DNA from: an uncultured Clostridia bacterium
GTDB lineage: Bacteria; Bacillota; Clostridia; Christensenellales; UBA1242
Reading direction: 5' to 3'
Length of the DNA: 64,000 nt
Assembly: GCA_944381135.1 (NCBI GenBank)
Contig: CALWJY010000001.1
Span: forward strand, 4,378-68,377
A program made the position numbers and the translations under genes. The notes beneath the pieces were generated by a model. That model was not told the origin of the DNA. It made no database searches and saw nothing but the letters and a program-made list of their open reading frames with translations. Of the stretch, positions 31,089 to 37,761 are shown one piece after another. Every line of letters starts with the position of its first letter. The stretch's first letter is position 1.

Positions 31089-31185
31089 GATTTCATGCTT
31101 TTGCAAAAGAACTTGAAAATTGATGATTTGTTTTGATGCGTCAAGAAATTGAAACAAACTTCAAAAAACAATTAAAATTTGAATT

Positions 31186-31208
31186 AAACGGCAAATTTGC
31201 CGTTTTTT
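31186..31208 (+). terminator. intrinsic terminator after tsf
   Basis: AAACGGCA-aatt-TGCCGTTT followed by a T-run. Confidence 0.75.
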
Positions 31209-31404
31209 CTTTGTTTAAATATTTGCAAAATGGGTGCTTGGTGTGATAAACTAAGAAAGTTAGAGCAACAGATTGTTTTTATTTTGAGGTGGAAAAGAGA
31301 AGCAAACAGTTAAGGTTTGTCAAATTTGCATGAAATTAAAATGAAAACAAATGCTTGAACTTTAAAATTTAAACGGGTCACTGACCCAAAAGGAGAAAAT
31401 TTTT

Positions 31405-35205: not shown

Positions 35206-35236
35206 AAGGAACGGCGAAATGACCGTTCTTTTTTTA
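35206..35236 (+). terminator. intrinsic terminator
   Basis: AAGGAACGG...CCGTTCTT followed by a T-run. Confidence 0.65.
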
Positions 35237-35367: not shown

Positions 35368-35396
35368 TTGACAAATTTTCAAGTTTGACATAAAAT
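35368..35396 (+). promoter_or_regulatory. SigA-type promoter, 6 nt upstream of ATG 35403
   Basis: TTGACA-17-TAAAAT. Confidence 0.75.
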
Positions 35397-35402
35397 TGTT
35401 GT

Positions 35403-36935
35403 ATGAATTTCCAGCAAGAGTTTGCCACAAAGTTTGGCGAAAAATATCCAACACTTCAACTTAAAAGCGTTGCGGTCAAGAAAAGCACAGGGGCGTTTTT
35501 CATCACTTTTTTATATCCATCCACCGACACAGAACTTTCTGATGAGCAAAAAAGCGAAATCACGCAGTGGATTTGCCAATTTTTGAAACTTGAAAATCTG
35601 CAAGTCAGAGTCAAGTTTATGCGTGTTTTTGTGGAAGAAAGGCTGATTATGAAGTCGGTTTTGTCTTTCTTTGAAAACAAATATAAATTGATTTCAACCT
35701 ATCTTTCTGAGAAAAGTTTTCAAATCAAAATCACACCAATTGATGTTCAGATTGGAGTTGAGGTGAGTTCGAGACTTTTTAATTTCTTCGTGGAGCACAA
35801 CATTTCGGCAGAACTTTCAAAACATCTTAAAGACAACTTTTTGGTGGATTTTGTTGTGGAACTTCATGAAAATGCCAACTTGGTTGATGAAGTGGACATC
35901 GACAATGTCCAAATGAAAACGAAATATAAAATTGTTCACAGATATAAAGTTGACATCGTGAAAGAGATTGTAGGCAAAGACATCAATCCGACACCAGAAT
36001 TTATTTCTTTCATTAAACAGCCAAAAAATTCGGTTATCGTTGCAGGCTTTGTTGACAAACTTGAACGTCGAGATTTCATCATCAAAAAAGGCAAACGCGA
36101 AGGTCAACAGAAAGCATATTTCAGTTTCAAAATTGATGACGGAAAAGGCAAAATGGACTGCATTTTCTTCTGTGCAAAAAAATATGAAAAAGTGATGGAC
36201 TCTTTGGAAGACTGCATGTTTTTGCTTTTGCGCGGGGATGTCAGACTGAACCAAATGGGCAAACTTTGCCTTTATGTTGATAAAATTGCTTTGGCAAGTC
36301 GAACGGAAGAGCCTCAAGAAATCATAAAACCACAGAAGAGTTATGATGGAAAAGTGGTTGAGGTTGAAAAACTGACCGCCATGGAACAAGACAGCATGTT
36401 TGAGCACAAAAACAAATATAACGCCAAAATTATGGGTAAAACAATTGTGGTGTTTGACATTGAAACGACAGGGCTTGACACAAATTCCGACCAAATCATC
36501 GAACTTGGTGCTGTGAAATTGGAAAATGGAAACATTGTCGAAAAATTTTCCACTTTTGTCAAACCAACAATACGAATTCCGTTTGCTGTTGTTGAACTGA
36601 CAGGAATCACGAATGAAATGGTGGAAGATGCACCACCAATTGAATTTGTCATCAAAGATTTCTATGACTTCACGCGCGGATGTGTTTTGTGTGGACATAA
36701 TGCAATTGAATTTGACATCAAATTCATCAGGCGCGAGGGGGCAAATTTGGGACTTAATTTTGACAATGAAATCATTGACACCATGAATGAGGCTCGTGTT
36801 TCAAGGCTTAAAATTTCGCGTTTCAATTTGGCAACAGTTTTGCGAGCTTTGGGGTTGACAAACGAAGGGGCTCACCGTGCGTGGAACGATGCTTACGCAA
36901 CTGCTCAGGTGCTTTTGAAACTAAACGAAGCTTGA
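35403..36935 (+). CDS. PolC-derived 3'-5' exonuclease (N-terminal domain + OB fold + DEDDh; no PHP or polymerase domain)
   Basis: ExoI FDIETTG, ExoII HNAIEFD, ExoIII HRAWND; OB-like segment VIVAGFVDKLERR..FSFKIDD..LLRGDV; lies between rseP and rimP, the usual polC position. Confidence 0.8.
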   Translation: MNFQQEFATKFGEKYPTLQLKSVAVKKSTGAFFITFLYPSTDTELSDEQKSEITQWICQFLKLENLQVRVKFMRVFVEERLIMKSVLSFFENKYKLISTYLSEKSFQIKITPIDVQIGVEVSSRLFNFFVEHNISAELSKHLKDNFLVDFVVELHENANLVDEVDIDNVQMKTKYKIVHRYKVDIVKEIVGKDINPTPEFISFIKQPKNSVIVAGFVDKLERRDFIIKKGKREGQQKAYFSFKIDDGKGKMDCIFFCAKKYEKVMDSLEDCMFLLLRGDVRLNQMGKLCLYVDKIALASRTEEPQEIIKPQKSYDGKVVEVEKLTAMEQDSMFEHKNKYNAKIMGKTIVVFDIETTGLDTNSDQIIELGAVKLENGNIVEKFSTFVKPTIRIPFAVVELTGITNEMVEDAPPIEFVIKDFYDFTRGCVLCGHNAIEFDIKFIRREGANLGLNFDNEIIDTMNEARVSRLKISRFNLATVLRALGLTNEGAHRAWNDAYATAQVLLKLNEA

Positions 36936-37414
36936 CTCGAAAACTGCGCTGTTTGCTCATTTTTGGCATTTCATGCCAAAAAGCATCGCTCTGACGCTTG
37001 TTTTCGAGTCATCGCGCCAGACGAAAATCTCACTGACGTTGCGATTTTGCGCGACTCTCTTGCGAAGAATGAGATTCTAAGAGAGATGGTGTTTTTTTAG
37101 AAAGTAGCACTGCCACAAAACCGCGCTGTTTGCTTATTTTTGCCATTTCATGCCAAAAAGTTTCGCCCTGACGCTTGTTTTCGGTGGCATTGCCACAATT
37201 TAAAGAATGCAAATTAAAAGGGGTTCAAAAAAATTCTTAAATTTTTGGGAAAAGGAATGACCAAGCATTTTCCGAGTGCTTGCGAAAAGCAAGCCGAGTT
37301 TGAGCGCGGGTCATAACGCGGTCGCGACTCTCCTATCGAAGTGGGAGATTCTAAGAAAAAGATGTGTGTTTTAAAAAGTGGCACTGCCACCATCACTCTG
37401 AGCAAAGCCCGTTG
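36933..37414. repeat. structured dispersed repeat, copies 2 and 3, plus an internal direct repeat
   Basis: Hairpins at 36933-37011, 37012-37054 and 37111-37189; 37050-37116 recurs at 37323-37390. Confidence 0.8.
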
Positions 37415-37430
37415 TTTTGAACTTATATTT

Positions 37431-37562
37431 GTCACCCTGAGCGAAGTCGAAGGGTCTCATGGTGATTAAAAAGGAAAGAGATTCTTCGACACAGCCTGTC
37501 GGCTGGCTCAGAATGACGAAGAAAATTGCCGAATGTCATTCTGACCGAAGTGGAAGAATCTC
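37431..37562. repeat. cluster of REP-like repeats including an inverted pair (REPIN-like)
   Basis: 37431-37458 direct; 37478-37517 inverted (GAGATTCTTC...TCAGAATGAC); 37535-37562 direct (GTCATTCTGA...GAAGAATCTC). Confidence 0.8.
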
Positions 37563-37761
37563 GGACTACACTTAAGGTGGCGGTGGAGCACTAATTTTTA
37601 AAAAAAACACAAAATTGTTATAATAAAATTTTTAATTTTTTGAAAAAATCCTTGCTTTTTATGATTTTTTGGGTTATAATGTTTATATCTTGACATTGGA
37701 GGGGGCATTTTTGCCTCCTCCTTGTGTTAAAAAGACATTTTTGCAAAAAATTGGAGGAAAA

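Follow-up and report, generated by a model that had tools for sequence, protein, structure and literature searches.

Can a gene at the polC locus lose its polymerase and still take part in replication? The question is raised by one gene in a window of 64,000 nucleotides (nt) from an uncultured Clostridia bacterium (Christensenellales, UBA1242; assembly GCA_944381135.1, contig CALWJY010000001.1, positions 4,378–68,377 of the forward strand); the window is this whole stretch, and positions are counted from its first letter. The product of the gene, P0001, is encoded on the + strand by an uninterrupted open reading frame (ORF) of 510 amino acids (aa), from an ATG at 35403 to a TGA ending at 36935. 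An earlier reading of the letters alone, here called the original prediction, took it for a PolC without a polymerase, kept as an epsilon-like proofreader that may serve a DnaE-only replisome. On the comparisons of sequence described below, P0001 is PolC-derived and the positional ortholog of polC. We further propose, with moderate confidence, that it is a clamp-tethered proofreader that acts in trans for a DnaE1-only replisome.

To define what has been kept of PolC, P0001 was compared with domain families, with profiles of related proteins and with solved structures. Pfam assigned an OB fold to residues 215–295 (PF01336) and an RNase_T/DEDDh exonuclease to residues 349–504 (PF00929; 119 bits, cut-off 24, E 3e-34), and matched no PHP, polymerase or BRCT family in the protein. 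When a profile of 39 orthologs (A1) was aligned by hhalign with a profile of 10 full-length PolCs of the same order (A2), the P0001 family was collinear with PolC positions 25–591, with the N-terminal half of the PHP domain skipped (probability 100%, E 1e-70). The N-terminal domain (NTD) alone matched these PolCs with a probability of 92.7% (E 4e-7), and the OB domain alone with E 1.6e-19. All five DEDDh residues are present (D352, E354, D438, H491 and D496), and the protein ends 14 residues past D496 of ExoIII (...LKLNEA). The linker between the OB fold and the exonuclease gave no significant hhalign match to the N-terminal half of the PHP domain (P 0.063); the sole alignment placed EQDSMF over the PHP motif HTQMSxMD, which is not evidence, and the idea that the linker is a degraded PHP half was rejected. 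Compared with PolC, both halves of the PHP domain, the polymerase core, the HhH element and the C-terminal clamp motif are lost, as judged from Pfam, hhalign and tblastn. Thus, the OB-like domain, the ~45-aa linker with QDSMF, the complete exonuclease ending right after ExoIII and the loss of the polymerase together with both PHP halves, all of which had been read from the letters in the original prediction, stood up to these comparisons. So did its argument that P0001 is not a simple truncation: the N-terminal PHP half was deleted internally, and the C-terminal 850–900 residues were lost in addition.

Family scores agree with this anatomy. The best NCBIfam match of P0001 is the PolC model NF001688, over model positions 408–585, at 168.3 bits against a cut-off of 873; the PolC model TIGR01405 also stays below its threshold (144.6 bits, cut-off 1043). 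P0001 passes the general DnaQ-family model TIGR00573 (103.4 vs 71.5 bits) and falls below the cut-offs of the epsilon equivalogs (TIGR01406, 74.6 vs 222.7 bits; NF004316, 83.7 vs 196 bits). By these scores it belongs to the broad DnaQ/DEDDh family but not to the epsilon equivalogs of E. coli type. Judged by family score, PHP domain, polymerase core, HhH and C-terminal motif, it is no PolC, and it cannot be a polymerase.

The AlphaFold2 model of P0001, built with the A1 alignment, has a mean predicted local distance difference test score (pLDDT) of 86.6 and contains three confident domains (residues 1–160, ~183–300 and 346–510), with low confidence at residues 165–175 and 301–345. The best Foldseek match of the whole model was 9qpc_A, over 400 columns; 9QPC is the structure of E. 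faecium PolC (PMC12592400). Further matches were DnaQ domains, the exonuclease of Thermotoga PolC (2p1j) and E. coli epsilon, with a root-mean-square deviation (rmsd) of 1.6–2.2 Å for the epsilon and DnaQ-domain chains and 7.2–7.3 Å for 2p1j. The NTD modelled alone (pLDDT 91.7) matched folds of the tandem KH-like or ring-building type, such as PrgH and archaeal NusA (E 3e-4 to 1e-3); the best 50 Foldseek matches included neither a PolC NTD nor tau domain V, and its sequence profile gave weak eL38/KH matches to solved structures (E 0.02–1.2). This fold likeness agrees with the published prediction that the PolC NTD consists of two KH-like subdomains (PMC3919608).

The position of the gene points the same way as its sequence. 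Short and full polC genes of the order share one locus, with rseP upstream and nusA downstream. In Bacillota, polC usually lies between rseP and rimP-nusA. No polymerase ORF follows P0001: the DNA at 36936–37760 is non-coding and contains dispersed repeats. A tblastn search with the 10 full PolCs found nothing past the exonuclease (best E 0.12 after the stop), and there was no Rfam match at E up to 0.1 in the DNA 3' of the stop; on these grounds, and from its dispersed-repeat make-up, a polC remnant in 36936–37760 was ruled out. The original prediction was therefore sound in its intact ORF, its assignment to the polC locus and its absence of a downstream polymerase.

Occurrence and descent of the short form

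We asked how widely this architecture occurs. In a first sample of 41 genomes, to which the PolC model cut-off was applied, all 24 genomes of the same genus (genome sizes within the genus, 0.7–1.3 Mb) carry a frame of 511–536 aa, and single genomes of five other families (G031, G034, G036, G039 and G040) also carry a short frame, none of them over the cut-off; a full PolC was found in 11 of the 41. A second sample covered 201 genomes of the order with a completeness of at least 85%, in which matches to P0001 were taken at E up to 1e-25. Matches were found in 169 genomes (173 match rows), and the counts of short and full forms rest on the best 150 of these 173 rows. At least 83 genomes in at least 16 families had their best match in a frame of 490–600 aa, and at least 60 genomes in at least 22 other families had theirs in a frame of at least 1100 aa. 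Six rows were of other lengths (203–654 aa, mostly at contig ends), and one row was a second, broken match. Among the matches listed, no family of the order sample has both forms.

A gene tree was built from 63 rows and 508 columns, from which the PHP columns had been removed by the fill filter and two loci, L016 and L046, left out, as no motif or ORF was found there. The 39 short forms make up one clade (Shimodaira-Hasegawa-like approximate likelihood-ratio test, SH-aLRT, 100); its stem is long, with 1.35 changes per site, and the clade adjoins the full PolCs of the order. In a tree of DnaE, one branch (support 100) splits 17 short-form genomes, 15 of them from one genus, from 10 PolC genomes. 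A search with the NTD profile retrieved 531 clusters (50% identity) at E up to 0.001 and 349 at E up to 1e-10, and the best 150 were all of 577 aa or less. Identity of the orthologs to P0001 is 26–71%, yet none of the 39 departs from it at any of the five catalytic residues. The exonuclease is by far the most conserved part of the short forms; NTD and OB fold are kept in all 39, the NTD without an invariant residue beyond the start Met. Taken together, the locus, the clade, the DnaE tree and the NTD profile point to a single old loss event, followed by vertical descent under selection.

In public databases, short forms go under the names 'ribonuclease H-like domain-containing protein' and 'PolC-type DNA polymerase III', labels that can mislead surveys in which polymerases are counted. 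The carriers named in the protein-database matches are metagenome-assembled genomes only ('Clostridia bacterium', 'Candidatus Caccovivens sp.'). A protein 64% identical to P0001 is labelled Candidatus Caccovivens sp., a genus that NCBI places in Eubacteriales incertae sedis.

The converse case was also seen. L016, from a genome (G027) of another family of the order (f4), is a full-length PolC with degenerate exonuclease motifs (ExoI SLRTTG, ExoII HGAGAS, no H-x4-D in ExoIII), that is, a polymerase kept and a proofreader lost. In 8 of the 9 genomes of this family, no match to P0001 was found at E 1e-25.

The DnaE1 partner, the clamp motif and the role of P0001

The host assembly comprises 1.19 Mb in 16 contigs and is estimated to be 98.5% complete. 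Within it, no full-length polC was found: the PolC model matches P0001 and DnaE only, neither of them reaching the cut-off. The search for dnaE returned one gene, of DnaE1 type, whose 1205-aa product has the full DnaE1 set of PHP, polymerase, fingers, HhH and OB; DnaN and DnaX are both present in the genome. PF00929 matches no gene other than that of P0001, which is therefore the only DEDDh exonuclease of the genome. DnaE keeps an internal clamp motif, Q[FIVLM]S[LMIF]F, in 27/27 genomes, and in the host this motif is QISFF at residue 945. The original prediction had named the observations that would speak against it, namely a full-length polC elsewhere with P0001 unconserved, an N-terminus unrelated to PolC, or a QDSMF motif that is not conserved or does not bind the clamp. 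None was encountered: no full-length polC was found in the genome, the N-terminus is of PolC type, the short architecture recurs as one clade in at least 16 families of the order, and the motif is conserved as described next, with weak support for clamp binding from a model of the complex.

QDSMF lies in the low-confidence linker (pLDDT 48–70 over residues 301–345). The pattern Q-x-x-[LMIFV]-[FLM] occurs here in 36/39 orthologs and the stricter Q-x-x-[LMIF]-F in 29/39, counts that are not independent since the 39 rows are kin. Position 1 is Q in 36 orthologs, K in two and N in one; at position 3, 35 have N, S or D; every one of the 39 has M, L, I or F at position 4; and position 5 is F in 31, L in seven and M in one. 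The flanks are variable, and the loose pattern has only 14 further occurrences elsewhere in the 39 proteins. This pattern agrees with the published clamp-binding consensus, QL[S/D]LF or QxxLF, whose first, fourth and fifth positions are those that matter for binding (PMC12309361). All 10 full PolCs of the order have Q-x-x-[LF]-[FL] at, or within six residues of, the C-terminus; this motif was lost with the C-terminal part of PolC, and the internal motif of P0001 would replace it.

Binding to the clamp was examined by complex prediction, in which a DnaN dimer (alignment A3) was combined with residues 296–510 of P0001 (A1) and three controls were run. The complex scored 0.49 (runs 0.48, 0.49 and 0.51) vs 0.01 for the best control, a verdict of weak support; the partner had a pLDDT of 81 or more, and 93% or more of the contacts agreed between runs. 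When the method was calibrated, the mark was reached by 116 of 157 solved complexes and by 2 of 215 mismatched pairs; of those that reached it, only 18 of the solved complexes, but both mismatches, scored 0.60 or less. Because clamp-peptide complexes are among the solved structures, the score may reflect likeness to these. We infer that the linker motif may bind the beta clamp, as its conservation and, weakly, the model suggest.

The role that we favor starts from the loss itself. In an ancestor common to many gut Clostridia with small genomes, polC lost the PHP domain, the polymerase core, the HhH element and the C-terminal motif, and three accessory modules were retained, namely the NTD, the OB fold and the exonuclease of the DEDDh type. 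Replication would be carried out by the single DnaE1, with P0001 as a separate 3'-5' proofreading subunit of the DnaE1 replisome. The Q-x-x-[MLIF]-[FL] peptide in the linker would dock in one pocket of the beta-clamp dimer and the internal QISFF of DnaE1 would occupy the other. The OB fold would hold single-stranded DNA, and the exonuclease would take over frayed 3' ends and remove mis-inserted 3' nucleotides, as epsilon and mycobacterial DnaQ do. The NTD may retain the contact with the clamp loader that has been proposed for PolC (PMC3919608). Action at the fork, and contact with DnaE1 or tau, are expected from this arrangement.

Several observations weigh against a proofreader in trans. The nine PHP metal ligands of the host DnaE1 (H9, H11, D18, H43, E68, H86, C136, D204 and H206) are all preserved, as they are throughout the 17/17 short-form and 10/10 PolC-bearing genomes examined; under the criterion that the polymerase surveys of 2014 and 2026 apply, this DnaE1 may be able to proofread alone. 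P0001 is thus possibly an accessory factor and not the proofreader. The claim of an epsilon-like proofreader for a DnaE-only replisome thus stands as regards the single DnaE and the missing polC, but the need for such a proofreader was overstated. P0001 also has no C-terminal tail, its sequence ending with the exonuclease. E. coli epsilon holds alpha through such a tail. The motif itself departs from consensus at the Q in three of the 39 orthologs and at the final F in those with L or M, and the prediction of the DnaN complex gave weak support, with no interface reported. A search for expression data among 3 runs found none. In mycobacterial DnaQ, the motif was needed for clamp binding and dispensable for the antimutator effect (PMC11348249), so that a conserved motif need not be a functional tether. 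Insertions in DnaE were also considered as docking sites for P0001 and rejected, as they are confined to the genus and absent from the short-form genomes G039 and G040. These insertions, residues 280–296 at the end of the PHP domain and 482–492 in the palm region of the host DnaE (L006), are conserved within the genus (e.g., KKPPVLKYYFG) and absent in all other families examined.

With DnaE1 itself correcting replication errors through its PHP domain, P0001 could instead be a clamp-recruited repair or processing exonuclease, acting in mismatch-repair excision, on damaged or blocked 3' ends or in gaps. A PHP site that is fully intact in 27/27 genomes fits such a division of labor, and as the only DEDDh nuclease of a reduced genome P0001 may cover several housekeeping roles; clamp motifs are, moreover, common among repair proteins (PMC12309361). 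Set against this are the descent of P0001 from the proofreading domain of a replicase, of which it keeps the NTD, the OB fold and the locus, and the finding that mycobacterial DnaQ affected replication fidelity and not damage tolerance (PMC11348249). We consider a repair nuclease unlikely, although it is the most serious competitor of the proofreader.

Lower still we place an architectural role, in which the PolC NTD, with or without the OB fold, would organize the replisome through the clamp loader or single-stranded DNA, the exonuclease being secondary. The presence of NTD and OB fold in every ortholog would be expected from this, though little of the NTD sequence is fixed, and binding of the PolC NTD to the clamp loader has been proposed (PMC3919608); the dnaX gene of the genus is itself odd, with a short 0-frame product and the C-terminal domain in another frame (see below). 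However, the exonuclease is the most conserved part and its five catalytic residues are invariant, which would be unexpected for a dispensable activity, and an architectural role appears improbable to us. Almost no credence is due to an error of assembly or binning, to a polC pseudogene of recent date or to a wrong genetic code (read-through of the TGA): the genome is a 16-contig draft and the PolC hidden Markov model match extends 13 codons past the TGA, but the 490–600-aa frame ends after ExoIII in at least 83 genomes of at least 16 families with differing stop codons, the orthologs have diverged to 26–71% identity to P0001 with their catalytic residues conserved and the internal deletion of the N-terminal PHP half in common, the DNA after the stop is a dispersed repeat without PolC similarity, and rimP-nusA follow on the same contig. 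P0001 is neither an artefact nor a recent break, and that explanation is refuted. Read-through was also rejected on the frame past the TGA, which runs 54 codons into the repeat, and on the orthologs that end in TAA.

The dnaX gene of the host (G000:C15:275535-276596, - strand; locus L160, 1133-2571) looks recoded, as do those at L200, L201 and L202. Its 0-frame encodes only 367 aa, with domains I–III (Pfam), and a stop directly follows a run of nine A (..GTA AAA AAA AAC TGA). An overlapping 125-aa ORF, which lies in the -1 (+2) frame, can be aligned to the C-terminal domain of DnaX from relatives, where the protein has 500–580 aa (27% identity with residues 479–581 of the G031 DnaX across 107 aa, E 0.002 in a small set). 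The same layout of A9 run, stop and next ORF in +2 is found in two other members of the genus and in G040 of another family. In the genus, the DnaX frame measures 367–405 aa in all 23 genomes that gave a match, vs 502–706 aa in most other families. The layout resembles the gamma/tau frameshift or slippage in the dnaX of E. coli and Thermus. Extending the proposal, at least 16 of at least 38 scorable families might have a replisome that has not been described, with DnaE1 as sole replicase, PolC reduced to NTD, OB fold and exonuclease with a motif of its own and, in the genus, the C-terminal domain of tau reached only by slippage at the A9 run of dnaX; we regard this wider picture as tentative and rather doubtful in its entirety.

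A large lineage appears to dispense with the PolC polymerase and yet keep the exonuclease, the NTD and the OB fold. This bears on which enzyme is the real replicase in Clostridia with PolC and DnaE1: Timinskas et al. (2014, PMC3919608) asked whether it is DnaE1 and called for experiments. If the wider picture of the replisome holds, the modules that clostridial PolC cannot spare would be those for proofreading and docking and not its polymerase, and the experiment called for would already have taken place in nature. P0001 would be a natural case of an integral proofreading domain turned into a separate subunit, and living sequences would allow a direct test of the old view in which DnaE and DnaQ came from PolC when its two domains separated. 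A de novo internal clamp motif in place of the lost C-terminal one would exemplify the re-invention of a short linear motif after domain loss. Ibezapolstat and other PolC inhibitors are advertised as leaving some of the gut flora unharmed. Species that have no PolC polymerase would lack the target of PolC-directed antibiotics altogether. The published explanation of the sparing is variant PolC residues in Lachnospiraceae and Oscillospiraceae (PMC11963600), in a text with 0 occurrences of words starting 'lack', 'absent', 'truncated' or 'DnaE'.

Gene layout and features of the locus

The features of the locus are collected in Table 1. The original prediction began its feature at 35368, which is not the start of the ORF and is the first letter of the -35 box of a promoter; that the gene has a near-consensus promoter of its own was correctly seen. 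Only 6 nt separate the end of the -10 box from the ATG, and there is no Shine-Dalgarno sequence, so that the mRNA is probably leaderless, with transcription starting at the ATG itself. The layout TTGACA-17-TAnAAT-6 nt-ATG is kept in 16/16 same-genus orthologs inspected, which makes the gene a candidate for a conserved leaderless mRNA; it is not conserved in more distant families.

Table 1. Features of the P0001 locus, in window positions
Feature	Position	Strand	Basis
Terminator-like hairpin and T-run ending the upstream rseP (M50 peptidase)	35206..35231	+	hairpin by sequence; rseP by Pfam
Promoter TTGACA-17-TAAAAT	35368..35396	+	11/12 consensus positions
Polymerase-less PolC derivative P0001	35403..36935	+	510-aa ORF, family matches, hhalign
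PolC-type NTD, residues 1-160, two tandem alpha/beta KH-like subdomains	35403..35882	+	hhalign, AlphaFold2, Foldseek
OB fold, residues ~183-300, homologous to PolC OB	35949..36302	+	PF01336, hhalign
Disordered linker, residues 301-345, replacing the N-terminal PHP half	36303..36437	+	pLDDT 48-70; no significant PHP match
QDSMF, residues 329-333, candidate beta-clamp-binding motif	36387..36401	+	Q-x-x-[LMIFV]-[FLM] in 36/39 orthologs; weak support from complex prediction
DEDDh 3'-5' exonuclease, residues 346-510	36438..36932	+	PF00929 E 3e-34; Foldseek
ExoI D352/E354	36456-36464	+	invariant 39/39
ExoII D438	36714-36716	+	invariant 39/39
ExoIII H491/D496	36873-36890	+	invariant 39/39
Dispersed intergenic repeats, direct repeats of 67 nt and 54 nt	36940..37390	.	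further matches elsewhere in the genome; no PolC or Rfam match

Upstream of the gene lie rpsB, tsf, frr, uppS, cdsA and rseP (Pfam); downstream, ~820 nt of non-coding DNA are followed by rimP, nusA, ylxR and infB. Within the repeat region 3' of P0001, the 67-nt units are 91% and the 54-nt units 74% identical, and 13 further matches of these repeats were found on contigs C1, C8, C13 and C15 of the genome. The gap between tsf and frr (31089-31404) is only 316 nt long. This gap is the usual place of pyrH, which is not there; no search for it was made elsewhere in the genome.

Comparison with known systems

The existing literature comes close to P0001 from several sides. Timinskas et al. (2014, PMC3919608), who classed proteins by polymerase groups and domain architectures, reported that some Clostridia have a single DnaE1 only and that some clostridial PolCs are without an exonuclease; Ethanoligenens harbinense and Ruminococcus albus are PolC plus DnaE1 in their Table S1. 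Mention of a polymerase-less relic of NTD, OB fold and exonuclease was not found in the portions of that paper available to us. In the 2026 survey of bacterial polymerases, stand-alone DnaQs were assigned only where they were homologous to validated ones or where a DnaE-DnaQ model was confident, and its section on C-family polymerases mentions no PolC-derived stand-alone DnaQ. A full-text search of the literature found no description of a polymerase-less PolC derivative in the accessible text of the papers returned, including PMC12592400 and PMC3774996.

With full PolC, P0001 shares the locus between rseP and rimP-nusA, and its NTD, OB fold and DEDDh exonuclease are homologous to those of PolC and identically arranged. 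It differs in having no PHP domain, no palm, thumb or fingers, no HhH and no C-terminal motif of the QLSLF type, and in its exonuclease, which is terminal in P0001 and inserted within the PHP domain in PolC.

E. coli epsilon (DnaQ) is likewise a stand-alone DEDDh exonuclease, and it serves a DnaE-type polymerase. Epsilon carries a weak internal clamp motif, QTSMAF, adjoining the exonuclease (PMC12309361). P0001 also has a clamp-type motif adjoining its exonuclease, and the two folds superimpose closely (rmsd within the 1.6–2.2 Å given above). Unlike epsilon, P0001 is of independent, PolC origin and has an additional NTD and OB fold; its motif stands before the exonuclease, whereas that of epsilon stands after it, and P0001 is without the alpha-binding tail. 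The partners differ as well, since the DnaE1 that P0001 would serve has an intact PHP site, in contrast to proteobacterial DnaE1 (PMC3919608).

Because the PHP ligands of DnaE1 are intact, the nearest precedent is mycobacterial DnaQ. This protein contacts the clamp by a Q[Y/L]ALF motif at its C-terminus and acts as a proofreader alongside a DnaE1 with an active PHP domain, to which the clamp bridges it (PMC11348249). Both proteins combine a DEDDh exonuclease with a clamp-type motif and coexist with a PHP-intact DnaE1. The mycobacterial protein has a BRCT domain and a C-terminal motif, whereas P0001 has the NTD and OB fold of PolC and an internal motif, and its lineage is unrelated to the PolC-derived P0001. 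By analogy, mycobacterial DnaQ thus offers the best functional model for P0001. Stand-alone, clamp-linked proofreaders are already known; a separate proofreading subunit made from PolC itself, as P0001 is proposed to be, would be new.

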